Below, one piece after another: positions 1 through 50,581 of a stretch of DNA of 64,000 nucleotides. The first letter of the stretch is position 1, and every line of letters begins with the position of its first letter. The DNA lies in IMG/VR virus record IMGVR_UViG_3300001525_000065, positions 32,001 to 96,000 of that record. One strand, written 5' to 3'. Made by a program: the position numbers and the translations under genes. This DNA is from a virus (taxonomy: Duplodnaviria; Caudoviricetes). The notes below the pieces were generated by a model. That model worked only from the letters and a program-made list of their open reading frames with translations, was not told the DNA's origin and ran no database searches.

Positions 1-2343
1 GATGATTTCTGTAAGCGTGAATTGGATAATGCAGATAGGATCTCATACGATATAGAGACGAATGCAGAACCTACTTTCTCGAATAAATTTGAGGTAGTAG
101 GATTCTCATTGGCATCAAGAGGAGATAAAGGAAGTTATACAGTTATTAAATCTCTTGATTACGAGATGCCAAAGAGAGATGTATTACTGGTTAAATCGAG
201 AATACGCAAGTTATTGACAGAGAAGAATTGTGTATTGACATATAACTGCCTGTATGAGTTGCCTGGTACTCTTAATTGGGCTAATATTGAGATTAATCAT
301 GTGTTTGATGTATTCGTAATGGTCAAGCTCATGGTAGGTGACTCAGCCAAGTATATGGGTGGTCGAGGATTGAAAGCACAGTGCTCGTTACATCTAGGAT
401 ACAAGGATTGGTCAAAGGATCTGGACATTTATTTGGATGCGATTCAAGATCTCAAGCATAAGAAAGGTACAGTAGTAAAAACTCTTCTTAAATATTATAA
501 TAAAGCAGAAGTAGTGAATCTTATGCAGATACTTGAGCAGAAGATTCAAGATGATCCTGATTGTATCTCACGAGATGTTGTTTCTTATGGATTAGCACCA
601 TACAAACTCATAGGGAAGTATGGTGGAATTGATGCAGAAGTATTGTTCCCATTGTACGATTATTATGAAGATCAAATAAATAAGATGAGTGCAGAGATGA
701 ATATCGATTTGCATAAAGGTCTTGATTATTGGATGAAGCATCATCTAGCAGCATACGTTCTTGAGCGTAATGGAGCATACTGGGATGAGCAAGAAGCTCA
801 GAAAGTTTCAGCATGGTGTAGGAATATTGCACAAGAGTCATTGGCATATCTTGTATCATCTCCATTGACATTCCCATGGATAAAGAATAAAGTTATTTAT
901 AATGAATACCTGGCATGGCTTAGAAACAATAAGTGCCAAGAGATTCTAGGAAGAGATACAATTCCTAAGAGAATAACTAAGAATACATTAGAAATTATCA
1001 CAACTAATCAAGATCTTATGAGTATTCTTGAAGGCATGAGCTTGTCTCCTAGTAAGACTAGTTCAGAAGGGTATAAGTATAAACTTGCTATGGGGCATTT
1101 TGAAAAGCTGAGTGAGCCTTATCGCAATTCTCATGCAGAAGAGTTTGATGATTTTGCTCAGATGTGGATGGATAAATATATGGCAGAATCTCATTCAGTT
1201 GATGAAATGAAAGCATTATTTAATCCCATGAGTAATACAGCAGGCATAAAAGCTCAAATAAGTGAGATTCTTATAACTCCTGCAGTGAGATATGCTCGAA
1301 TTTATGACCAGATTCTTATGAAGATGGAAGCTCCAGATTTTGATATAGATGCAATTTGTACAGCTAAGTGGGATTCTAGTGTAGTATTTGAATCAGATAA
1401 GAAGTTATTGACTCTTGTGAGTAAGTTGAATAGCATGGATATCTCTCAGAGTAAGAAGCTAGAGATGTTCTCGAGGCAGCTTAATTCATCTACAGATTAT
1501 AGATCATGGATGATGAAAAATTTCATAAAGGACTCATTGAATTATAAACTGGATAGTACAGATGATAATCATATTATTGATATCTATAGATGGTATACAT
1601 TGACTGGAGTAGATATAGAGGATGAATCTACATGGAATGACAATTTTAGATGGCTGTATAACTATCGTATGTTTAAGAAGTCATCAAAGATGATATCAGT
1701 GTATATAGATGGTGCAGTTGGTCATCAGTCAGTGTATTGTGCAGATAAAGAATCGCTAGAACGTGGAGACCTAATGACTAAAACATGTGGATCATATAAA
1801 GATCATAATGGTGCATACATATTGCATACTAAGTTTTCTCCATGTGCTGCTGATACTGGACGATGGAAAGCAACGATGCATGTCCTCCCTAGTGGACGCA
1901 CAATAAAGCGTGTAATAAAATCAAGATTTCCTGGAGGAGTTGTATTCTGCCCTGACTGTTCCCAGGCAGAGGTGCGTACTCTTGCACGAGTAGCTCAGGA
2001 TAAGAATTTGATGGATGCATTTGAGAATGGTCTGGATATACATAGATATGTAGCATGCCTCACTGGAGATACGGAAGTACTGCTTGCAGATGGTTCAAGT
2101 AGAATGATAAAAGATCTAGTTGATTCAGAAGTGGGAGTAGCATGCTTGGATAAGAATAATGAAGTCACTACTAAGATGGCTACTAACATCAGAAAGACAA
2201 AGTCAACAACGAAGATAGTAGAAGTAACTCTTGATAATGGAGAAGTAATAAGATGCACGCCTGAGCATCTATGGCTTACTAAGAATGGATATATTGAAGC
2301 AAAAGATCTAGAAGGTTTAGATGTAGTAGGAGTAGCTAAATGA
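1..2343 (+). CDS. polA: Family A DNA polymerase, N-terminal part, ending in split-intein N-half (IntN 2056-2340); frame is open from base 1, so the start lies upstream of the window
   Basis: 3'-5' exonuclease motif YDIET; TGRW; motif A DCSQAEVR; DIHRYVA followed by intein block A CLTGDTEV and block B CTPEHLW; stops after 95 intein residues. Confidence 0.93.
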   Translation, partial: DDFCKRELDNADRISYDIETNAEPTFSNKFEVVGFSLASRGDKGSYTVIKSLDYEMPKRDVLLVKSRIRKLLTEKNCVLTYNCLYELPGTLNWANIEINHVFDVFVMVKLMVGDSAKYMGGRGLKAQCSLHLGYKDWSKDLDIYLDAIQDLKHKKGTVVKTLLKYYNKAEVVNLMQILEQKIQDDPDCISRDVVSYGLAPYKLIGKYGGIDAEVLFPLYDYYEDQINKMSAEMNIDLHKGLDYWMKHHLAAYVLERNGAYWDEQEAQKVSAWCRNIAQESLAYLVSSPLTFPWIKNKVIYNEYLAWLRNNKCQEILGRDTIPKRITKNTLEIITTNQDLMSILEGMSLSPSKTSSEGYKYKLAMGHFEKLSEPYRNSHAEEFDDFAQMWMDKYMAESHSVDEMKALFNPMSNTAGIKAQISEILITPAVRYARIYDQILMKMEAPDFDIDAICTAKWDSSVVFESDKKLLTLVSKLNSMDISQSKKLEMFSRQLNSSTDYRSWMMKNFIKDSLNYKLDSTDDNHIIDIYRWYTLTGVDIEDESTWNDNFRWLYNYRMFKKSSKMISVYIDGAVGHQSVYCADKESLERGDLMTKTCGSYKDHNGAYILHTKFSPCAADTGRWKATMHVLPSGRTIKRVIKSRFPGGVVFCPDCSQAEVRTLARVAQDKNLMDAFENGLDIHRYVACLTGDTEVLLADGSSRMIKDLVDSEVGVACLDKNNEVTTKMATNIRKTKSTTKIVEVTLDNGEVIRCTPEHLWLTKNGYIEAKDLEGLDVVGVAK

Positions 2344-3968
2344 AATACACTAAGAGATGCATAATTTGTGATAAAGAATTCACTACTACATCTGCAACTA
2401 AAGTGATATGCAATGATGTACACTATCGCAAATGCGAGATATGTGAGGCAGAATTCATTCTGCCTGCTAGAGCTCCTGATAGAACTACATGCAGCAAAAG
2501 ATGCACATTCATGAAGAATTATGGAGTCCCTAGTCCATTTATGTCAGAAGTAGTTAAGGCTAAATCTCGTGAGACTAGTATGAGAAAGTATGGAACTATC
2601 AATCCTTTATCATCTGATGTAGTGAAGAATAAGATCAAAGAGACCAATCAGCAGAAATATGGATGTGATAATCCTATGAAGTCAGAAGAGATAAAAGCGA
2701 AAGCTAGAGTCACTAATCAGAATAGATATGGAGTAGACTACCCTATGCAATCTACTGAGGTGCAAGAGAAGTCTAAGCGAACGTTACTTGATAAATATGG
2801 AGTAGACAATATAAGCAAGTTATCTGAGACATGGGATAAGACTCATGAAACTTGGATGAAGAATTATGGAGTACCTCATCCGCTTAAATCAGCAGTAGTG
2901 AAAGATAAAGTAATACAGACTAATCAAGATAAGTATGGAGTAGACTATTTTACACAATCTGATGAATACAAGATCAAAACTTCTGAGGCTTGTATGGATA
3001 AGTATGGAGTTGCTTATCCGTGTATGACTGATCAATGTATTCAGGCTAGTAGCCGAATATCTAAAGTGAATAAACGATTCATGAAATTCTTAAACGATCA
3101 TGGAATAGATGCTGAATATGAGTACCGTCTAGGCAGATTTTCTTATGATCTTCATGTATTGAATACTAACATACTTATAGAAATCGATCCTACATTTACT
3201 CATAATGTAACTACTCCTCATCATGATTATATGATTGATAAAAGTTATCATTTGAGCAAGACATTTATAGCTGAAGAGAATGGATTTAGATGTATACATG
3301 TCTTTGACTGGGATGACTGGAGCAAGATTCTGGACGTAATAAATCCTGATAAACATAAGGTCTATGCACGTAAATGCCAGATAACGAAGATAAGTAGTGC
3401 AGAGTGCGATGACTTCATGAACAAGTACCATTTGCAGAATACCTGCAGAGGTCAATCAGTTAGACTTGGATTATCATACAATGATGAGCTAATTCAGGTT
3501 ATGACATTTGGTAAACCTCGATACAATAAGAATTATGAGTATGAGTTGCTGAGATTATGTACTAAATCTAGATACTCTGCAGTAGGTGGATCCAATAAGC
3601 TATTCAACTACTTCATACATAATTATAATCCTAGATCCATCATCTCTTATTGTGATAATGCCAAGTTTACTGGAGATGTGTATGATTCATTAGGAATGGT
3701 ACTGCAATCATTATCAGATATAGGTATTCATTGGTTTCACAATGGTATTCACATTACTGATAATCTACTGAGACAGCAGGGATTCGATAGGTTACTAGGC
3801 GATAAGTATGGCACCTATGGCAAAGGTACTAATAATGAAGAGCTGATGAAAATGCATGGATTCATGCAAGTTCCTGATTGTGGACAAAAGATATTTGTAT
3901 GGAGTAATGAGAATAATCTGAACGAGTCTACTTGTGGAGGTAATGATAATGGAAGTAACCAAGCATAA
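2340..3968 (+). CDS. Free-standing putative homing endonuclease (Zn-finger N-terminus, KYG repeats, Vsr/PD-(D/E)xK-like nuclease, Hef-like C-terminal domain)
   Basis: CxxC pairs; repeated KYGVD/NP units; YDLHV...ILIEID...H...GFRCIHVFD nuclease pattern; sits between the two intein halves. Confidence 0.75.
   Translation: MKYTKRCIICDKEFTTTSATKVICNDVHYRKCEICEAEFILPARAPDRTTCSKRCTFMKNYGVPSPFMSEVVKAKSRETSMRKYGTINPLSSDVVKNKIKETNQQKYGCDNPMKSEEIKAKARVTNQNRYGVDYPMQSTEVQEKSKRTLLDKYGVDNISKLSETWDKTHETWMKNYGVPHPLKSAVVKDKVIQTNQDKYGVDYFTQSDEYKIKTSEACMDKYGVAYPCMTDQCIQASSRISKVNKRFMKFLNDHGIDAEYEYRLGRFSYDLHVLNTNILIEIDPTFTHNVTTPHHDYMIDKSYHLSKTFIAEENGFRCIHVFDWDDWSKILDVINPDKHKVYARKCQITKISSAECDDFMNKYHLQNTCRGQSVRLGLSYNDELIQVMTFGKPRYNKNYEYELLRLCTKSRYSAVGGSNKLFNYFIHNYNPRSIISYCDNAKFTGDVYDSLGMVLQSLSDIGIHWFHNGIHITDNLLRQQGFDRLLGDKYGTYGKGTNNEELMKMHGFMQVPDCGQKIFVWSNENNLNESTCGGNDNGSNQA
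3903..3930 (+). promoter_or_regulatory. Promoter-like motif AGTAAT-N12-AACGAGTCTA upstream of the IntC-polymerase gene
   Basis: Matches the motif at 6201, 8348, 10767, 53201(-) and 63663(-); directly upstream of an SD and ATG. Confidence 0.65.
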
Positions 3969-37438: not shown

Positions 37439-40400
37439 TTATGCCAGTATCGCGCCTCTGCAATACATATTGCTATTGATCATGCGCTTACCATAGCTCA
37501 TCATCCATGCACGACGTCCTACAAGGTCATCAGTGCGAAGGAGATCAGAAGGAGTAATGGGAAGGAAAGGACAATATACATCGTTTGTGTTACTGCTACT
37601 TCGTTTCCAAGTAGCATCACTAAGTTTCCTTAGTGACCAGACTATATCATTACCTCATGTATTATGATGAGGTATCTCACACTTTGAACTCACTTGAGTC
37701 CTACAGAGTTGCCACTCTTAGTCGTTGAACTTTCTACTTATACATAATGTATAAGATAGCTTAGCTGCTGATTATCCATTGTTGCAAGAGGTTAGATTAC
37801 TCATACTCTTATACTGAAGATTCTTTCTGCTTTCGCTGCATTCGCACTTGCCATCACTGGCTATGTTGTAGCTCTTCAGCCTTTAGGAGTTTCCAGCAAT
37901 TCATGAGATTTTCAATGACCAGTCACCTGGCCATGGGACTGTTTAGTAACCAATTGCTTATGCAGCTTTATTAGTACTAGTTAATCCTGCATCAAAGAGA
38001 CCTGTACCTCTGTATCCAAGCACGTACTCATTAGCAGGGAAGTCAGGAGATACATATACAGTGAACTGCCCATAAGTGCCAAGGAGGTAAGGACCTACAC
38101 CTGCATTACCGCTAGGAACAAAGTTACGAGAAGCAGAGATAACTGCTGCTACGCCAAGTCCACATACGAGAACATTCTATTCATTCAATAAGAATCGTTA
38201 CTTCTTATTCGTGTATCATACATGCACTGCTAATCATTTCTGACTAGAATAGACTATATCTTCATCATGGCATCTATTACCAATGACATGATGCTCATCA
38301 TTTTGATCTTACTTAAGATCTACTCTACTTGCTTCTTCACTAGTGGATTTCTCACTAGTTATGCTTTCGATAGTCGTTGAACTTCTACTCATGACTAATC
38401 ATGATGTAGTAGCTGCTGATTGTCCATGTATCTCAATAATTCTCAAGCATTCACACTTGTCATCACTGACTATGTTGTAGCTTATTGAGCTTTAGGAGTT
38501 TCCAGCAATTAGATGAGTTTAGACAGACCGATGTTACGCAGCCTGTACCTTGCGAGTATTCTGATAGATGATGTTGCTACCTTCAAGAAGTCTAGCATAG
38601 AAGGAGTCATAGTGGTCAAGGAGTGAAATGGCAGTGGGCTGAGCCTTAGACCATGCAGTGTTAGTAGCGCCTGCCTGAGCAAGAAGGTCTCCGCATACCT
38701 CCATATCCACTTCATGTGCTAGCTCACCAGCAACCTCAGCTGCCATTAGAGCATCGATCTGATTTCCATCATTTATGTTAGCTAGTCATTTCTGACTAGA
38801 TCAGACTATATCTTCATCTCATTGTCAGTGAGATGTCATTCATTTCGATTTAAGGGGATCTCACCCACTCATCATGTATTGTGATGAGCCCTACTCCTAT
38901 AGAATAGTTTATGTCAGTCTATTCCTTATAATTGGGATAGTCGTTGAACTTTATCCTATTCGGATTTTAGCTGCTGATTGTCCATTATGGAGATGTTTAG
39001 GATTTAACCATGCATCATATACTCATTTCTTTTTACTTTCGTAGCATTCACACTTGTGCTTATTTCATCACTATGTTGTAGCATGAGTATCTTTGGGAGT
39101 TTCCAGCAATTAGAATGATTTATTATTGTACTCATCACTGAGTACCGGAGCTTGGCTTTCAGATGATCGCTAACTCCTTCTCGAACTGAAGCGCAGCACT
39201 GAGGGAATAAAGAGATTTAATGGTACGATCCTTAGCTACGATCGGAAGAGATTCAATAGAGAGCTGAACCTCAGGAACTGCAGCAGGAGCATACTTATTG
39301 TTATAAGTGTATGTAGCAGTCCATGTACCTGCACCAGGAGCAGCAGTGAAGGTAAGTGCGCCAGTTGCATAGTCAATAGAACCAGCATCAGTGCCGCCCT
39401 TCTTGAGGTTGCCATTACCATCATCAGTGTAGACATTAGTGCCTTCAGTGATGTTGACAGATCCAGGAGCTACAGGAATCCATGCAAGAGATACAGTCGT
39501 ATCAGTTGCACCAAGTGCAAGAACTTCACCATCAACAAGTTCTGCAGTGTAGTTCTCATCAGACTGACCACCATAGATGGACGTCATGAAGGTGTCACCT
39601 GCTTTAACCTGACCCTTGTTGGATCCATAGTTATACTTAATATAATTTACCATACCTACGCGAGCAGACCAATTACCTTACAAATACATCGTATCCACGT
39701 ATTCTCTACATATTACTATGTAGTTGAGACTATATCATCATCTGAAGTACTGTTACTATACATCAGATGCTTCGCACTTCGATTTAAAGGATTTATCATG
39801 AGTTATTATCGCTCATGTACCTACCACTTGGCTCTACTCTACTCAGTTATTCACTAGTGTATTTCTCACTAGTTATCCTTTCGATAGTCGTTGCTCCTCT
39901 AGTACTACTCAGGGCACTAGAGGATCAGGATTGTCCATGTACTGCGTAACTTTACATGGAGGTTCCCTGAGTTCACGAAGTTTATCATAATAGATCACTC
40001 TATTATGCCACCTCATTGATGGGCTGCACTGAAACTAGATCGTACATAATGGTGTTAGGTACCATTGCATTAACGATATCCACATTTATCTTACGAATGT
40101 ATCGTATCCATACATTCTCTATACATTACTGTATAGATGAGACTATATCACATTCTCATTGACTCTTCACCAATGAGAACCTCACCATTTCGATTTAAAG
40201 GATTTACCATAAGCTAATCTCACTCATGTACCTACCACTTGGCTCTACTCTACTAGCTTATCATCACTGTCATATCTCAGATTAATTAGTGATTATGCTT
40301 TCGATAGTCGTTGAACTACCATCCTGCATCTAGATGATAGCTGCTGATTGTCCTAGAACTAGTTAATGATCATCCTGGGAGTTCCCAGCAATTAAGTGAG

Positions 40401-40644
40401 TTTGCATAACTAATCACTTAGTTATGGCGCAGGAGATTTACGCCCATCTCTTATATGATCCAGCAGAACCACCAATAGAAGTTACCTGAGTAGCCTCGAG
40501 GAGGTTCTTAGTATTCTCAAGAGTTGCAGCAAGTGCATTCTTACGATCGATGGAGAGAGCCTTACCAGTGGCTTTCTCAGTCATGGTTATACGCTTACCC
40601 CACTTCTCCATAAGAGCTGAATTAGTTTTAGAAATTGCATTCAT
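37439..40644 (-). CDS. Major capsid protein (gp23-like), 443 aa after splicing; exons 40644-40440, 40082-40019, 39669-39173, 38769-38540, 38176-37984, 37581-37439
   Basis: Exons total 1332 nt (444 codons) with no internal stop; junctions restore gp23 motifs WA-L-DIV, VSVQP-M-SARVG, EKE-Y-GNQID, QA-NVLV and DAG-Y-VYCPF. Confidence 0.93.
37582..37983 (-). ncRNA. Group I intron 5 in capsid gene (402 nt, no ORF; enlarged 44-nt P1 loop)
   Basis: P1 GGAU/GUCC with U.G; P AAUUGCUGGAAA, Q AAUCAGCAGC, R GUUCAACGACUA, S GAUAUAGUCU; terminal G. Confidence 0.92.
38177..38539 (-). ncRNA. Group I intron 4 in capsid gene (363 nt, no ORF)
   Basis: P1 ACAGGCU/GGUCUGU; P, Q, R and S elements; P10 AACAU/AUGUU; terminal G. 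Confidence 0.92.
38770..39172 (-). ncRNA. Group I intron 3 in capsid gene (403 nt, no ORF)
   Basis: P1 GGAGU/GCUCC; P, Q, R and S elements; terminal G. Confidence 0.92.
39670..40018 (-). ncRNA. Group I intron 2 in capsid gene (349 nt, no ORF)
   Basis: P1 CCAU/GUGG; covaried P4 UCAGG/CCUGA; R CAACGACUA, S GAUAUAGUCU; terminal G. Confidence 0.9.
40083..40439 (-). ncRNA. Group I intron 1 in capsid gene (357 nt, no ORF)
   Basis: P1 GGCGU/GCGCC; P AAUUGCUGGGAA, Q, R and S elements; terminal G. Confidence 0.92.
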
Positions 40645-44484: not shown

Positions 44485-45951
44485 CTAGAATATTAAGAAG
44501 TCATCGTCATTGTTATACAACAAATCAGATATCTCATCATCAGTAACTTTCCATCGATCCTTAGGATCTATCTTGTTACGTACATCAACTACTGATGTAT
44601 CTATTTGATTCTCATCCATTACTGCATTTAACTCAGCTTCAATAGCTTCATCAGTCAACTCAGGTTTATCATCCATATGAGTAGATGGATCATCAAGTAA
44701 TGCATTAGCTGCAGATGCATCAGTAGTAGGTTTATCATCAGTATTAGCATCCATTACATTGTATGCATCATCAGATAGATAAATCTGATCACTGCAGTCA
44801 TACTGAGATGCATTGAATAATGCAGCTGCAAGACTGTCCAGACCATCTTTTGAGCCTTTACCGTCATATGTATGATCGATCTTACCTGTCATGTTATTAC
44901 GTTCTACATTAACCATCTCTAGTACTAATTCATGTATGTTCAATAGACTTACACGTTTCTCATTGATAGCTGACTTAAGACACATGTATGCATCTGGAGT
45001 TCTATCAACTGATAGTAGCTTAGCAGGATATCCAGCATTCTGAAGTATCTGTATGTTATCACGAGATTGGAATCCATCCTGAGTGATACCACATATATTA
45101 AATCCAGATTCCTTCAGATAGTAGATGAATTGTCTATTCTTCTCAAGTGATATCTCATCACCAGATGGACATTGAATAAACACAGTAAAGATATGAGCGA
45201 ATTGCATCTCATGTACTGGGACTGCTTCACCTACATCATTATCGAATCTATCAACCTTTCTTGTACCGGTAATAGCTACCATAGATATACCAGTACGGTC
45301 ACCTGTTAATGACCCATCTATGTGTAAGAAGCAGGGTTTGCTCCTCAGTACTAAATTCACCAATTTAGGATTAAAGTAGTCTGACAATGATTGTGAGTCG
45401 TGACAACCTATTGTCAATACAGGTGTAGTGAATGGATTAGTACGAGGTCCAAATGCCTCTTTTATACGATCATACACTAAGAATTTAGTAGTCAGTGATG
45501 AGCTAATACCTGCATAATCCATTAGTGATGTATCTACATCAAGATCAAATGCAGACTTGAACTCAATAGGTACCTCTATGATCTTATAACCTTGATTAGC
45601 CATAGCTACCTGATCATCTTCATCAGTCATTACTCTACTACGTAGTATCTTATTACCTACTGCTACTAGGAACTTCTTACCTGAATAGATGTTACTAGGC
45701 TTTACATTCCATTGAGGTTCATCTATGACTAGTACAGATGGATTATCTTTGACTGTCTGTATATATGACTCAAGGAAGTCTTGTTCACTCTTCTTAGATG
45801 ATACTAGGAATAGCTTAGCTGCTAGGTCACCACCATCTCGTAGGAATCGAGATTCCATACGACGCTTTATGGCACGATATGACTTCATGATCTTGGACTT
45901 CTCAAATTGTACATCAGCTCCTCCCACGAAGTCTACCTCATCCAATAAAGC
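44485..45951 (-). CDS. Terminase large subunit, C-terminal part from Walker B onward (C-extein of the split intein at 45959-46093)
   Basis: ALLDEVDF, VSS coupling motif, nuclease HID...DRTGI, DGFQS, KIDH...SKD; Walker A absent; frame closed upstream by TGA at 45952-45954. Confidence 0.88.
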   Translation of the reverse strand, partial: ALLDEVDFVGGADVQFEKSKIMKSYRAIKRRMESRFLRDGGDLAAKLFLVSSKKSEQDFLESYIQTVKDNPSVLVIDEPQWNVKPSNIYSGKKFLVAVGNKILRSRVMTDEDDQVAMANQGYKIIEVPIEFKSAFDLDVDTSLMDYAGISSSLTTKFLVYDRIKEAFGPRTNPFTTPVLTIGCHDSQSLSDYFNPKLVNLVLRSKPCFLHIDGSLTGDRTGISMVAITGTRKVDRFDNDVGEAVPVHEMQFAHIFTVFIQCPSGDEISLEKNRQFIYYLKESGFNICGITQDGFQSRDNIQILQNAGYPAKLLSVDRTPDAYMCLKSAINEKRVSLLNIHELVLEMVNVERNNMTGKIDHTYDGKGSKDGLDSLAAALFNASQYDCSDQIYLSDDAYNVMDANTDDKPTTDASAANALLDDPSTHMDDKPELTDEAIEAELNAVMDENQIDTSVVDVRNKIDPKDRWKVTDDEISDLLYNNDDDFLIF

Positions 45952-45958
45952 TCATGAT

Positions 45959-46093
45959 CTAGCAATTATGAGATACTATATAATTATCATGATCACATTT
46001 TACTAAGAAGTTATGATAAGGATTAGCATTTATAACGTCATATACTGGTATTGGATTATCATAATGAATATGTGATACTTTAGTTACTCTCAT
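45959..46093 (-). CDS. Split-intein C-half (43 aa plus Cys+1) of the terminase; missing from the ORF track
   Basis: MRVTKVSHIHYDNPIPVYDVINANPYHNFLVKCDHDNYIVSHN-C then TAG; blocks F and G; SD GGAGGTGATC upstream. Confidence 0.88.
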   Translation of the reverse strand: MRVTKVSHIHYDNPIPVYDVINANPYHNFLVKCDHDNYIVSHNC

Positions 46094-46123
46094 AATTACT
46101 TGATCACCTCCTTCACAAATGTA

Positions 46124-46276
46124 TTATAAATCTTATCTAGCAGTATGCATAGTAATGCATTTGAATATATGAGATGACTAGTGAAGGAGATAGTCATCCA
46201 TACTTCATTTACTTTACTATGTATACTTATCTCATAAGGTCATGAGTCTTATGCTACCTAGATAAGAATTTATAAG
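46124..46276 (-). promoter_or_regulatory. Structured leader (branched stem-loop) upstream of the IntC-terminase gene
   Basis: Closing stem TTATAAATTCTTATCTAG/CTAGATAAGATTTATAA; arm CATAAG/CTTATG; long arm ending GATGACTA/TAGTCATC with loop TCTCCTTCAC. Confidence 0.65.
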
Positions 46277-46309
46277 TTATATAATAGAATTTTACTAATG
46301 CAGAATGCC

Positions 46310-46423
46310 CACTTAGTGCTATGAGACGTTTAGAGCCTCTCTAGACGTTGTTTAGACATACAGGGGCAAAACCCTCCCCTTGGAATCAAAGACGCTTATA
46401 AGACGTTCTAGACGTGCTAGAGC
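46310..46423. repeat. Dispersed quasi-palindromic repeat, copy 5
   Basis: Core ggggcaaaaccctcccc with periodic arms. Confidence 0.9.
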
Positions 46424-46433
46424 ATGAATGAGT

Positions 46434-46850
46434 TTATCTACAATTATGGCAAGTATAATGATCTATACCTGCACGTTCTTTAAGAGATGCCATCCACATA
46501 ATGGGTAAACATGAAGATATATCCAAATTATAATAGCTAGTGATGAGATCTTTATAATGATCAGTGTCTATGCACTTATCCATAAATATCATAACTGAAT
46601 AAGATGTGAATTTATTATCAGATGTATAGTTAGGATCTACTATCACTCTACCTCTAGGATAATAGTCAAATGGCACTTCATGACCATCCACTAGGTATTT
46701 AGATCTGTAATGATGCCATGTATTCTCATGAGTCTTATTAGCTAATGAGTATTCATAGTTATAATGAGGCACTTCTACTGCAGAACCTACCACTTCATTA
46801 TCAATAATCCAGAAGTATCCTTCAGATGGATAAGATTCTAAAATCTTCAT
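46434..46850 (-). CDS. Hypothetical protein, paralog of 8394-8762
   Basis: GYFWIID, HENTW, YYPRGRV, HYTC. Confidence 0.75.
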   Translation of the reverse strand: MKILESYPSEGYFWIIDNEVVGSAVEVPHYNYEYSLANKTHENTWHHYRSKYLVDGHEVPFDYYPRGRVIVDPNYTSDNKFTSYSVMIFMDKCIDTDHYKDLITSYYNLDISSCLPIMWMASLKERAGIDHYTCHNCR

Positions 46851-46862
46851 AATACATCTCCA

Positions 46863-47360
46863 TTACTCTTTCTCTCTAGGAGATAGATCTACTGATCCAT
46901 TCTCATAAGTAGCTATCCTCTTAGGTATCCATTCATATTTACTCTTCTTCATATATGATGCACGATTAAGTGCATTTGATCTGGTAGGGAAGATAAGTAT
47001 GGACTCATTACTCTTATCAGTAGTATAGCCATCAGATGTGAGATATCTATTGCCTGATGCCAATACATAACCATAACCATAAGAATCCATATTCTTAGAT
47101 AGCATACTCACTGTAGATGATTTCTTAGTCTTGAACTTGAGAGTAGGAATTTCTATTTCACCAGGATCAGTAGTATTCTGTAGGATACTCTTCACTTCTG
47201 CATCAATGTCTAAGATCTTATCTTTAGGCAAGTCTAATTCTAGGAGTTTCTTAGCTACTTCCTCAGGATAATTATACATGATTGATACATGTTCAATGCC
47301 ATCCTTAGCAATTATAGCAGAGTATCTACGCTCAATTAACACTATCATTGTATCATTCAC
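46863..47360 (-). CDS. Hypothetical protein
   Basis: Coupled ORF. Confidence 0.65.
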   Translation of the reverse strand: MNDTMIVLIERRYSAIIAKDGIEHVSIMYNYPEEVAKKLLELDLPKDKILDIDAEVKSILQNTTDPGEIEIPTLKFKTKKSSTVSMLSKNMDSYGYGYVLASGNRYLTSDGYTTDKSNESILIFPTRSNALNRASYMKKSKYEWIPKRIATYENGSVDLSPREKE

Positions 47361-47887
47361 CTCATTATATCTATCTTACTACCTAGTGATAATCTAGCAT
47401 ACTTGAATCCATGACTATGCATCTGATAATTCTTATTAGTCTCATAAAGATGACCAGATGAATAGTACCTACGAATTCTATCTACTACATAATCAGTACC
47501 ATCATCTAGTGTATACATCTTAGATTGATCACCTATCAGTACTTCTACTATGTGAGTAGTCCTAGCAAGATAATCTAGCCATACTAATAATGTGTTAGAT
47601 TGTTCATGAGTAATGACATGATCAGGACTACACATGACATAGTACTTAGGTACATCACATCTTATGCATCCTAGATCTCTCAGGGTTGGACTGCCTGCAG
47701 TTCTGATGTATTCATATGATGATAAATTATTATCAATGAGCCATTTCTCTACATCCGAATGATGACTGCATCTGGATAGATTCAATAAGTATCCATTAGG
47801 TAGAATGTATGCAGGTCCATTGTATGGATGATCAATAGTACCATAATGATCTACTATGAGATCTAATAATGCATCTGAATCCATCAT
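47357..47887 (-). CDS. Hypothetical protein
   Basis: Coupled ORF; YILPNG...H...GCIR. Confidence 0.7.
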   Translation of the reverse strand: MMDSDALLDLIVDHYGTIDHPYNGPAYILPNGYLLNLSRCSHHSDVEKWLIDNNLSSYEYIRTAGSPTLRDLGCIRCDVPKYYVMCSPDHVITHEQSNTLLVWLDYLARTTHIVEVLIGDQSKMYTLDDGTDYVVDRIRRYYSSGHLYETNKNYQMHSHGFKYARLSLGSKIDIMR

Positions 47888-49506
47888 AGGATATCATCTA
47901 GGAGATCAAGCTGAACAATCTCATAGTCTAGACAATCATCCTCAGTACAATCAGAATCAGGATCAGGCTCAAGTAGCTCTAGCTGCTCAGCACCTTCATC
48001 CTCACCTTTAGCTATGTCATTAGTGACCTCTGAGATCTGCTTAAGACACTCCTGAAGCTGACCTACATGCTTATTCTCCTCAGAGTTGATATCATCAATA
48101 ACTGCTAGCATCTGATTATGACCTAGTTCTACTATGTAATCATGAAGCTTATTATAGTCATTGATGGTATCCCATTCTGCATTGATCATCTCAATGAGTG
48201 CATCTGCTAGCTCAGTATCATTAGCGCATAGTTTATTATTGAGTTCTAGCTTCTCAGTCTTAGCCTTATTAGCAAACATAGCACGTCTCTGTGCATCAGC
48301 TTGTTTCTTAGTTCTAAACTCTCCATGAGTCTTGCCTGACTTACCTACATTGACCCATTTATTACCTCTCTTGACTGTGTCTTCACTGAGATTATCATGC
48401 ATAAGACTGAAGGTATTTCTGATTGATGCTACCTGACTAAGTATCTCAGTTCTATACTCAGGATGTTTATCAATCATCTTCTCTAAAGAATACTTGATTG
48501 CATATGCATCTTCATTTATCTTATCTAGATATTTATCTAGATCATCCTGAGTAAATGATCCATCTCTCCAATCTTCGTCAAGTGGCACTTCTACATCATC
48601 AGGTAGCACATAGATATCAGTAAGATCTACATCACTGAGCTCTCTCGCACAGTCTCTGGCATCCTGTACATATCTAACGAACTGTTCATACTCGTTGAGC
48701 CTCAGAGATCCATAGTTGTCAGTTGTAATTTTGAATTCTTCAGTCCTATAATCGTACCAAATCTCAGGAGCGTACTGATGATCATTGGATAGTTCTATAA
48801 CTATCTGATCTCCATCACGGAATGCATTGCCAAGAATGTATCCGTACTTATATGCTATCTCATCTATCTCAAGAAATACATCAGAATCTCTCATCTCTTG
48901 CTCAGGGTCTATGTACTCAAGCAGGTCAATACTATCTACCTTACCCGAAGATACATTAGATGCCTGAGTAGCTTCCTCGAAGATATCATCATCCTCATCA
49001 TAATCATCAGGATAACTAATTACCTTATCTGCAAGATCTTTCTTAATGGACCATCCAGACTCATCATCAGGCTCATCAGATGCCCACCATGTCTCATCAT
49101 CTATCTCACGCACAATGTATAGATCACCATAAGGTCCAAAGTCCACTAAGGTGCCTTTAGGAAGATCAGTAGGAACTTTATCTTCAGTCAGGCATTCACC
49201 AACCTCACAAGGTATCTCGATCTCATCTGCATGATAGTCAGTAACGTCTTTATAGATCTTATCACCTGATTCTTCATCCTGACCCGTAATATTATGAGTA
49301 GTCACTGAGTACTTCACCTTATACTTATGACCAGTTTCAGTATCTCCTAGATCCTCATAAGAATCTAGAGAAATGGATGACATCTCATTATCATTAGCAT
49401 TATTAAGATAATCAGTTATCTTAGTTCTGACTTCTTCTGATTCTCTAATTATTTTCATTGGAATCACTCCTTTATAGATTTCCATATAGGTGCTGTATTC
49501 TGCCAA
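47884..49506 (-). CDS. Acidic multi-domain protein with C-terminal ferritin-like motif (start probably ~49458, MKIIRES)
   Basis: INAEWDTINDY...EENKHVGQL; domains joined by LxE linkers. Confidence 0.65.
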   Translation of the reverse strand: MAEYSTYMEIYKGVIPMKIIRESEEVRTKITDYLNNANDNEMSSISLDSYEDLGDTETGHKYKVKYSVTTHNITGQDEESGDKIYKDVTDYHADEIEIPCEVGECLTEDKVPTDLPKGTLVDFGPYGDLYIVREIDDETWWASDEPDDESGWSIKKDLADKVISYPDDYDEDDDIFEEATQASNVSSGKVDSIDLLEYIDPEQEMRDSDVFLEIDEIAYKYGYILGNAFRDGDQIVIELSNDHQYAPEIWYDYRTEEFKITTDNYGSLRLNEYEQFVRYVQDARDCARELSDVDLTDIYVLPDDVEVPLDEDWRDGSFTQDDLDKYLDKINEDAYAIKYSLEKMIDKHPEYRTEILSQVASIRNTFSLMHDNLSEDTVKRGNKWVNVGKSGKTHGEFRTKKQADAQRRAMFANKAKTEKLELNNKLCANDTELADALIEMINAEWDTINDYNKLHDYIVELGHNQMLAVIDDINSEENKHVGQLQECLKQISEVTNDIAKGEDEGAEQLELLEPDPDSDCTEDDCLDYEIVQLDLLDDIL

Positions 49507-50183
49507 TTACTGGCATCAGATGCAGGTAGTTGTTCCAGAGCATATACCACTTTCTTATCTCTACGATAAACTAGCGCACCTACTTCCACATCTGTAAGGC
49601 TGGTCATGCTTGATTCATCATCAGCTACAAAGATCTGAGGAGTAGCTCTAGCACTCTTATTAAGATCAGGATCTCTTACAAATGATCGAGTAACTGCATC
49701 ATAATAATAGTACACTGTATCCTGATTATAATTCTTATCATGCACTACCTTGATTACTTTACCATTAGCTAGGAAATCAGAAGGTAGTCTAAGCATCGAA
49801 TCGAAAGTAGGTACTACTATGAATTTATCAGCATCTGGATTAAGATAAGATGATGCTTGGTAAGTAAGTGTTAATTCATAACTGCTAGTCAATACATCAA
49901 TATCATCTGCAATAAGCGTTATGATGAACTTACATGAGATAACCTTATTAGGTTCAACTAGATCAGATGGAATTGATACATCTCCATTAGCATCTAGTTC
50001 TATTCTCTCAGATGTAAGTCCAGTATCATTTATCATGTATTGCATCTTGTACTTGTCAGTAGTGTAATTATCTGGATAATTAGTACGAATAACATATGTA
50101 TCAACTATTGTTGGATCAACCTGAATGACTGACCATGCATCACCACTAGCAAATCCATTCGAGTTAATATCTATATTAATCAT
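49464..50183 (-). CDS. Hypothetical, possibly structural protein
   Basis: Two short related C-terminal modules. Confidence 0.6.
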   Translation of the reverse strand: MINIDINSNGFASGDAWSVIQVDPTIVDTYVIRTNYPDNYTTDKYKMQYMINDTGLTSERIELDANGDVSIPSDLVEPNKVISCKFIITLIADDIDVLTSSYELTLTYQASSYLNPDADKFIVVPTFDSMLRLPSDFLANGKVIKVVHDKNYNQDTVYYYYDAVTRSFVRDPDLNKSARATPQIFVADDESSMTSLTDVEVGALVYRRDKKVVYALEQLPASDASNWQNTAPIWKSIKE

Positions 50184-50581
50184 ACATACTCCTTACCTAG
50201 TGCTAGAGGTCTACATAGCCTACGAATCTCATCCTCAATGATGAATGTGTTCTGACTGAGCTTATCAGTATCCATGGTCCTAGCACTAGTTACTGACTGA
50301 CCAGTCATGAGATTGATCTTATCCTTATTGATCTCGACAATAACCTGATCATCCTTAGGTTCACAAGGTTTAGCTACTGCAGAATTGCCTCTGATTACTC
50401 GATTGATAGCTGCAGCAGTATCAATGGTAATTTGATAAGGGCAGTCAACTCCAGTAATAGTATTGTAATTGATAAGTTCATTGAGTATCTCAGCTAGGTC
50501 ACCTGACTTGAGTACTTTCATCACATTATCAAATCCAATGCCAGTAGTCATAATTGCTTCATTGACTCTCTTTACTCTCAT
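50180..50581 (-). CDS. Hypothetical protein
   Basis: Coupled ORF. Confidence 0.65.
   Translation of the reverse strand: MRVKRVNEAIMTTGIGFDNVMKVLKSGDLAEILNELINYNTITGVDCPYQITIDTAAAINRVIRGNSAVAKPCEPKDDQVIVEINKDKINLMTGQSVTSARTMDTDKLSQNTFIIEDEIRRLCRPLALGKEYV

Follow-up and report, generated by a model that had tools for sequence, protein, structure and literature searches.

A conserved, structured leader RNA precedes a split terminase gene of a phage and carries a loop complementary to its Shine-Dalgarno sequence

A conserved, structured sense-strand leader RNA of ~180 nt precedes a split terminase gene in the phage sequence analyzed here. The window, i.e., the whole stretch of 64,000 nucleotides under analysis, comprises bases 32001-96000 of a 109,711-bp IMG/VR phage record with a GC content of 37%. 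We tentatively favor the reading that this RNA is a translation-limiting 5' leader acting via a pseudoknot that masks the Shine-Dalgarno (SD) sequence, although we hold this to be slightly short of probable.

A three-armed leader RNA at the split terminase locus

All genes around the leader are located on the minus strand. The features of the locus and of the leader fold are as follows.

45959-46093, minus strand: IntC, the split-intein C fragment (44 codons, with the end ..VSHNC followed by TAG)
44485-45951, minus strand: TerL-C, the terminase large subunit C-extein, from Walker B (LLDEVDF) to the stop codon
45952-45961, minus strand: 10-nt noncoding insert TAGATCATGA, preceded by the +1 Cys codon of the intein and followed by GCT-TTA-TTG (A-L-L-DEVDF)
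46258-46274, minus strand: 5' strand of the closing stem P1 (UAUAAAUUCUUAUCUAG), which pairs with 46140-46125 in the minimum free energy (MFE) fold and in the RNAalifold consensus
46125-46140, minus strand: 3' strand of P1 (CUAGAUAAGAUUUAUA), which overlaps an invariant TATAAT-like box (46127-46122)
46233-46253, minus strand: arm 1 (P2), a short hairpin (CAUAAG/CUUAUG) present in the MFE and consensus folds
46142-46227, minus strand: arm 2 (P3), a long hairpin with interruptions (~34 bp), the tip of which is the anti-SD loop
46268-46274, minus strand: TATAAAT box, the exact 5' boundary of conservation with the relative L007

The insert TAGATCATGA disrupts the reading frame between the Cys codon and GCT-TTA-TTG. 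Since it was unchanged in 11 of 11 independent contigs (the window and 10 relatives), an assembly error was ruled out as its source. In the Bacillus phages SP-15 and HSE3 and the Listeria phage LIS04, the same intein fragment is found in frame (..VVVHNC-G/A-LLDEVEF). TerL-C is directly followed by a T4-type portal gene, and the N-terminal terminase pieces are located at genome positions 539-3222 (minus strand), beyond the window. This N-terminal half comprises at least three ORFs (1792-3222, 1313-1558, and 539-1012), in which intein-like segments separate the matches to HSE3 gp054; its distance to TerL-C is ~75 kb on the linear contig and ~32 kb around the circle. The presence of a similar leader on the N-terminal terminase gene was rejected, because only ~70 nt with a simple hairpin are available upstream of it.

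RNAfold analysis of positions 46088-46280 (minus strand) revealed a three-way junction composed of the closing stem, a short arm, and a long arm. Its free energy was -52.2 kcal/mol (z = -4.16), and none of 200 dinucleotide shuffles was as stable. This bore out the closing stem with two arms that the initial annotation had described upstream of IntC, and every sequence quoted there was found in its place on the minus (coding) strand. In a 511-nt context the leader fold was unchanged (z of -4.44), and the sense-strand z values of the leaders of L007 and of another relative, L013, were -3.0 and -3.49, respectively. In P1, 16 of 16 pairs were invariant in the 11 sequences. Arm 1 has a loop of 9 nt, ACUCAUGAC (46247-46239), which holds the palindrome UCAUGA, and it can also pair in an alternative register (CUCAUG/UAUGAG); because this arm is invariant in all 11 sequences, it gives no covariation information. 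At its tip, arm 2 has a stem of 8 bp that closes the 10-nt loop UCUCCUUCAC. Seven pair positions of arm 2 vary on one side yet still pair via G·U, and two positions are broken. The indels found in the leaders of relatives (GAA, ATT, CA, and C) are, without exception, located in a bulge or a loop.

The protein search that defined the relatives yielded a cluster of 13 sequences with 97% identity and one protein with 79% identity (L007). The alignment consisted of the window and ten contigs from ten different samples (11 sequences); ten of these sequences are ~97% alike, and only L007 is diverged. Each of the 11 sequences contained the leader from TATAAATTC to the ATG. In a comparison of the window with L007, the leader was 96.1% identical, IntC 78.8%, and TerL-C 80.7%, with 69 to 71% identity at the third codon positions of the two coding regions. 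An identity of 96.1%, compared to ~70% at third positions, argues for strong purifying selection on this noncoding segment. When the 6-kb locus was analyzed in 60-nt windows, the leader (~180 nt) was its most conserved part, except for the capsid exon/group I intron region. Furthermore, unpaired leader bases were conserved as strongly as paired ones, suggesting a constraint beyond simple pairing.

Conservation of unpaired bases is typical of RNAs with tertiary or protein contacts. The leader could accordingly be read as a sensor platform, the junction of which binds a protein (e.g., a terminase subunit for autoregulation or a phage translational repressor) or a small ligand and thereby gates the contact between the apical loop and the SD. 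Its junction and loop bases, conserved like the stems in a leader with 96% identity versus ~70% at neutral positions, are consistent with this, and so are two sets of mutually exclusive pairings: two copies of AGAUAAG are alternative partners for the leader sequence CUUAUCU, and arm 1 can adopt its two registers. However, these alternative pairings are located in AT-rich invariant sequence and hence beyond covariation, and no candidate binding protein or ligand was identified. Moreover, no family was matched when positions 45850-46500 were searched against Rfam 15 down to E = 10 (best score of 19.6 bits versus a cutoff of 58; E = 0.33). We consider a sensor platform unlikely. The only matches at the Rfam gathering score in the window were five group I introns, all away from the leader.

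Neither in INPHARED phage records nor in IMG/VR was a relative above ~45 to 48% protein identity detected. Exact-pattern scans of JGI metagenome contigs and IMG/VR found no leader; the lone chance match, in L049, was located in unrelated coding DNA. SP-15, HSE3, LIS04, and the more distant relatives L017 to L037 have short leaders that do not contain an anti-SD complement, and the leader described here is therefore specific to its own clade. Several other descriptions of the segment were rejected. As a duplicate of the IntC 5' end, it was no better than shuffles in a local alignment (p = 0.38). As a dispersed repeat, it was dismissed since the three-way junction is unique in the genome and only the upstream block at ~46310-46430 is repeated. 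Finally, the small leader ORFs read from the sequence (MTL*, MR*, MKYG*, and MDDYLLH*) are broken by indels in relatives.

The fold was strand specific. In 8 of 8 distinct variants, the sense fold had a free energy of -47.3 to -50.7 kcal/mol, whereas the antisense fold reached only -33 to -39 kcal/mol in 7 of the 8; for L013, the z values were -3.49 (sense) and -0.82 (antisense). This asymmetry argues for a sense-strand RNA element and against a duplex-DNA site. The RNAalifold consensus retained the three-way junction. We also scored a combined structure comprising the junction, the loop-SD pairing, and the helix between the translation initiation region (TIR) and the take-off region (both described below), in which 98.8% of the alignment cells pair. 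In this structure, 11 positions that vary on one side pair via G·U, 3 break, and 1, in the TIR helix, changes on both sides. Pair compatibility of 11 of 14 stem substitutions corresponds to a binomial p of ~0.03, assuming that a transition is compatible half the time. Regarding covariation across related phages, which the initial annotation had named as a check, the fold was kept in the 10 relatives, but none of the 66 leader and pseudoknot (loop-SD) pairs had changed on both sides in a compensatory manner. The covariation score was reached in 67 of 500 shuffles, with a single diverged relative in the alignment; this control is weak because ten of the sequences are nearly identical. In being more stable than shuffled sequences and kept on one strand across relatives, the leader resembles conserved structured cis-regulatory RNAs.

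Alternatively, the segment could function at the DNA level, either as a promoter or operator with inverted repeats or as a pac site beside the terminase gene. It adjoins terL and contains a 16-bp inverted repeat (TATAAATTCTTATCTAG ... CTAGATAAGATTTATA). In addition, its conservation has a sharp boundary at the TATAAAT box: the homology of L007 to the window starts exactly there, and the sequence upstream is unrelated. However, substitutions keep the pairing only on the sense strand, via G·U, and produce A·C mismatches on the other strand, a pattern not expected under selection on duplex DNA. Moreover, TATAAAT is not clearly enriched in noncoding DNA (15 of 64 sites versus 13% noncoding), and a search of the record for sigma-70 region 2 and region 4 domains found no sigma-factor domain. 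We regard a DNA-level function as very improbable. The use of T4-type late promoters likewise received no clear support, with neither TATAAAT nor TATAAATA clearly enriched in noncoding DNA. Judged from its sequence, the TATAAAT box may be the outer part of the 5' strand of P1 or, alternatively, a -10-like promoter element. The invariant TATAAT-like box at 46127-46122, a putative promoter located between the mask and the SD, was not called in a consensus sigma-70 scan; if transcription started at this box, the mRNA would lack the whole structure.

Complementarity of the apical loop to the Shine-Dalgarno sequence

Two features are central to the proposed masking.

46181-46190, minus strand: apical loop UCUCCUUCAC, an anti-SD mimic with an invariant 3' part, CCUUCAC (46187-46181)
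46102-46116, minus strand: extended SD GUGAAGGAGGUGAUC, with the loop partner GUG(A/G)AGG

The loop UCUCCUUCAC (46190-46181) and the sequence GUGAAGGAGG (46116-46107) can form nine Watson-Crick pairs and one G·U pair, with a duplex energy of -15.0 kcal/mol that is equalled by 1 in 10,000 genomic 10-mers (top 0.01%). An upstream complement to the SD, as in leaders that mask ribosome-binding sites, is thus present, and its 7-bp core was found in 11 of 11 sequences. Within the 3.6-kb operon, the best partner of the loop is its own SD, and the next best has a duplex energy of -10.8 kcal/mol. When genes were ranked by the complementarity of the TIR to the 180 nt upstream, the IntC gene was second of 113, and the gene ranking first does not have a real SD. 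In the nested-structure ensemble, the loop was 99% unpaired and GGAGG was 62 to 78% unpaired, so that both are free to meet.

The 10-nt complementarity between loop and SD pointed out in the initial annotation is therefore present and rare, but the full 10-bp match was found only in the window and L007. The other nine relatives have 7 bp (CCUUCAC with GUG(A/G)AGG; -9.9 to -13.2 kcal/mol) and a C opposite an A of the SD. For every loop variant, the SD duplex was within the top 1% of genomic 10-mers. The U-to-C change in the loop, found in 9 of 11 sequences, reduces the match from 10 to 7 bp and indicates that the extended pairing is not selected. As far as the alignment can tell, the conserved loop-SD contact is one of 7 bp. 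The three or four 5' loop bases (UCU, CUC, UUC, UCC, or UCCC) are always pyrimidines and represent the most variable spot of the leader. The A/G polymorphism in the SD faces a loop U and is tolerated for this reason.

In the MFE and consensus folds, the anti-SD is always an unpaired apical loop and the SD lies outside the junction. Pairing between them thus requires a pseudoknot, and an invariant 3' loop half next to a variable 5' half is the pattern predicted for the H type. The SD starts 8 nt after P1, and the loop is located at the far end of the ~34-bp arm; given this distance, the pseudoknot would probably need a kinked arm 2 or a partly open P1. A nested alternative helix, GAUGACUAUCUCCUUCAC:GUGAAGGAGGUGAUC (-21.4 kcal/mol), was rejected because 8 of 11 sequences lack its additional GAU:AUC pairs, and a nested hairpin with the SD in its 3' strand did not appear in any fold.

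According to the model that we favor, positions 46274-46117 would form the structured 5' leader of the IntC-TerL(C) mRNA, a three-way junction in which the tip of the long arm presents CCUUCAC in imitation of the 16S rRNA anti-SD. This loop sequence would pair with GUG(A/G)AGG of its own SD, giving rise to an H-type pseudoknot. In it, no spacer would separate the paired 3' half of the loop from the 3' strand of the hairpin stem, and the variable 5' bases would span the crossing as a linker. The rest of the TIR, comprising the SD tail and the AUG, would be held by a separate 20-nt helix with the take-off/gap sequence located 125 nt downstream, and the leader loop would add an SD lock immediately 5' of this TIR helix. 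Together, the two contacts would hold ribosome loading low or conditional. The mask would be opened, if at all, by an RNase III cut in the long arm, by a protein, or by use of a second promoter. We infer the formation of the pseudoknot and the lowered translation from the fold, its conservation, and the rarity of the loop pairing. Since the leader is a conserved sense-strand RNA with a loop capable of masking the SD, a role in translation initiation is plausible. To this extent we agree with the control of initiation claimed in the initial annotation, but formation of the pseudoknot itself is only predicted.

Instead of limiting translation, the leader could be a processing or stability element, such as an RNase III-type site or a 5' stabilizer of the late structural operon. 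The strong SD would then act as a ribosome-binding stabilizer, and the loop-SD match would be incidental or relevant only before cleavage. With ~34 bp and internal loops, arm 2 has the general shape of phage RNase III sites such as T7 R1.1 and the lambda N leader, and its length is compatible with the ~20 bp or more of interrupted duplex required by RNase III. The position of the leader, at the head of the conserved IntC-TerL-portal-protease block and directly preceded by a variable region and a palindromic repeat resembling a terminator, would suit such an element, as would the conserved sense-strand structure. This does not explain, however, why seven 3' loop bases are invariant beside variable neighbors and why the SD of the same gene is the best partner of the loop in 3.6 kb; moreover, related phages manage with leaders of 40 to 90 nt. 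Altogether, a processing or stability function seems rather unlikely to us.

The start-region helix, the short arm, and the 10-nt gap

The long-range helix at the start codon involves two further features.

46088-46107, minus strand: TIR strand of the helix (20 nt), from the SD tail through the AUG (46093-46091) to +3
45954-45973, minus strand: 3' strand of the TIR helix, made up of the take-off region (..UCUCAUAAUUGC) and gap nucleotides 1 to 8

The TIR strand GUGAUCAAGUAAUUAUGAGA (46107-46088) pairs with UCUCAUAAUUGCUAGAUCAU (45973-45954), which consists of the last intein codons, the stop codon, and five more gap bases. The helix contains one A·A mismatch and two G·U pairs, and when 9,140 genomic windows were scored against the junction, its duplex was among the three best. 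In L007, it shows a compensatory A-U to G-C exchange (AGTTATG/CATAACT) and a C-G to U·G change. In ensemble folds, the AUG was 0% unpaired in the full-length mRNA, compared to 53% before the take-off region is transcribed, which suggests that the start codon is locked by the gap region independently of the leader. According to these models, the gap is engaged by the TIR of the gene itself and not by the leader arm.

The initial annotation had matched the second arm of the leader (arm 1) to the landing site of the gap. The match was recovered at 12 of 13 positions, including one G·U pair, but the duplex has only -10.5 kcal/mol, and the best leader:junction duplex (-22.0 kcal/mol) has its equal in 11% of size-matched genomic windows, i.e., it is within chance. 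Two more arm-landing pairs are lost in L007 through two silent changes (TTA to CTT), and no compensation occurs in arm 1, which is unchanged. The contribution ascribed to the palindrome TCATGA was correct: the invariant core of the match is only 7 nt long (CUCAUGA/UCAUGAG) and is built on UCAUGA. On these sequence comparisons, we treat the extended arm-landing pairing as probably due to chance and its 7-nt core as a candidate contact at most. The suggested displacement by the intron 5 RNA found no support, and the intron-5 antisense idea was rejected, because the duplex of the intron-5 segment with the junction (-20.4 kcal/mol) ranked merely 165th of 9,140 genomic windows.

A separate observation concerns the leader sequence UUAUGAGAUA (46227-46236, minus strand), which shares 8 nt with the true start context UUAUGAGAGU. 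It is perfectly complementary to 10 nt at 45975-45966 and could compete for the take-off region. L007 retains 8 of these 10 pairs and has a U for A at the position matching 45974.

Gaps at the same junction were also found in L017 and L018 (IMG/VR, 45% identity), which have HNC-stop-L-stop-GILDEV with an in-frame 9-nt gap, TAACTATGA. In both (L017, 1477-1510; L018, 36-70), the sequence reads HNC-TAA-CTA-TGA-GGA with two stops, and the insert again ends in ..ATGA. L017 and L018 have no such leader, and in them an ORF runs into the SD; the leader is therefore not required for a gap at this junction. Located upstream of the start codon and absent from these gap-bearing relatives, the leader does not behave as a bypass stimulator. 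In L019 (1471-1510), a TAG is present inside Walker B (LDEI*INF). Of the other IMG/VR relatives with 45% identity, five have the intein fragment in frame, and the rest do not have an intein. The upstream:SD duplexes of the IMG/VR relatives had -3.6 to -15.2 kcal/mol, compared to -21 in the window, and an upstream SD complement was not present in them.

These data bear on the idea of an integrated switch, in which initiation and the 10-nt hop would both be under the control of the leader, via pairing of arm 1 with the landing site and/or via displacement by the excised capsid intron 5. The core CUCAUGA/UCAUGAG is invariant in 11 of 11 sequences, and the TIR:take-off helix provides a physical connection between the leader, the TIR, and the gap. 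For T4 gene 60, pairing of the exiting mRNA and inter-ribosome spacing have been argued to affect bypassing (bioRxiv 10.1101/2024.12.09.627546), in line with such a switch. Nevertheless, the low energy and chance-level frequency of the arm pairing, its uncompensated losses in L007, the 9-nt gap without a leader in L017 and L018, and the low rank of the intron-5 segment all speak against it, and we consider an integrated switch quite improbable. The control of gap crossing claimed in the initial annotation is not upheld, since the arm pairing is within chance and not conserved and the gap occurs without the leader in L017 and L018.

With the same low probability, the leader, the start region, and the gap may act together as a single RNA device, linking the hop to ribosome loading. 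In this device, initiation would be metered by the anti-SD loop, with only one ribosome at a time on the 44 codons of IntC. The vacant start region would then re-pair with the take-off sequence emerging from the lead ribosome, and this pairing of the exiting mRNA would push the ribosome over the 10 untranslatable bases. It is because of the gene 60 work on exiting mRNA and ribosome spacing that we retain this coupling as a low-probability possibility. If it is true, the initiation rate would set the bypass efficiency in an essential packaging gene.

Comparison with known systems and neighboring loci

Ribosome-binding sites are hidden in leader structures in T4 e, soc, 49, and I-TevI and in Aeh1 mobE (PMC3014915), and structures masking them have also been found in split-intein "fractured gene" loci (PMC2677866). 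As in the T4-type leaders, the SD of a phage gene is complementary here to an upstream sequence of the same mRNA, and a TATAAAT-like box is part of the structure; with the "fractured gene" hairpins, the leader shares the location at a split-intein locus. In contrast to the T4-type leaders, which are simple local hairpins with the SD in the 3' strand, the complement here is the apical loop of a 150-nt three-way junction. In the T4-type leaders, furthermore, a late promoter inside the 5' strand gives rise to open transcripts, whereas here TATAAAT is located upstream of the anti-SD, so that transcription from this box would still include the mask. A further difference is the regulated gene, here the intein-extein fragment itself and not a homing endonuclease.

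H-type pseudoknots serve as translational operators in the T4 gene 32 leader, the E. coli rpsO leader, and the SAM-II and preQ1-II riboswitches. In these operators, as in the leader proposed here, loop bases find their partner downstream, in a single strand located at or close to the SD, and the 3' loop half abuts the stem, favoring coaxial stacking. In contrast to them, the leader has a connecting strand of 64 nt that is itself paired within the three-way junction, no effector was identified for it, and it has no sequence or Rfam similarity to them. The Min Jou interaction of MS2 is a long-range translational lock in RNA phages, and its comparison concerns the neighboring TIR helix and not the leader. 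In both cases, the start region pairs with a distant internal coding sequence; however, the partner here is the bypass take-off site with the gap instead of an upstream cistron opened by ribosomes.

Candidate 10-nt frame-breaking inserts have been described for the terminase of the Streptomyces phage Hau3 (PMC10732093), and the locus analyzed here likewise has a terminase gene with a 10-nt frame-breaking insert. It also shares with the bypassing signals of T4 gene 60 and Hau3 an mRNA pairing upstream of the take-off site. Known bypass stimulators are located inside the coding region or the gap, in contrast to the leader, which lies upstream of the start codon.

If our preferred reading of an SD-masking, translation-limiting leader is true, the leader would represent an undescribed conserved RNA motif without an Rfam family. 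It would control a terminase C-half that needs a hop over the gap and then protein trans-splicing to an N-half encoded at a distance of ~32 kb or more, so that three unusual steps would be stacked on one essential gene. The locus would then be a compact natural system in which to study the interplay between bypassing, ribosome loading, and long-range mRNA pairing. A leader that does no more than dampen translation or stabilize the message would be of an ordinary phage type, though in an unusual place.

The region upstream of the leader is variable. A palindromic repeat of ~130 nt (window positions 46310-46430, minus strand) is present in at least eight intergenic copies in both orientations; the other copies are at genome positions 6198, 16844, 21298, 31235, 38139, 47459, and 85084. 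Its core is GGGGAGGGTTTTGCCCC, with flanking CTAGA/ACGTC motifs. Candidate functions of this repeat are those of a bidirectional terminator, of a processing site, and of a miniature mobile element. Of the Logan contigs, three (L013 to L015) terminate within it. Further upstream, at window positions 46434-47887 (minus strand), there are three small ORFs (138, 165, and 176 aa) that did not match a family. Together with the repeat, these ORFs are present in the window, L009, L010, and L012 and absent in L008, L011, and L016, in which an ORF of 527/540 aa directly abuts the leader, revealing an indel polymorphism immediately upstream of it.

Two observations were made at other loci of the window. 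The ORF at 49464-50183 (upstream region ~50184-50400, minus strand) has an initiation region, UCUAGCACUAGGUAAGGAGUA, with a contiguous 11-bp complement (-19.4 kcal/mol) within the 180 nt upstream; this complement ranks third of the 113 genes and may represent a second masked ribosome-binding site. At positions 40131-40550 (minus strand), capsid exon 1 and the first group I intron are 90 to 100% identical to L007, compared to 60 to 85% for the flanking coding sequence, which suggests homogenized or recently spread introns.
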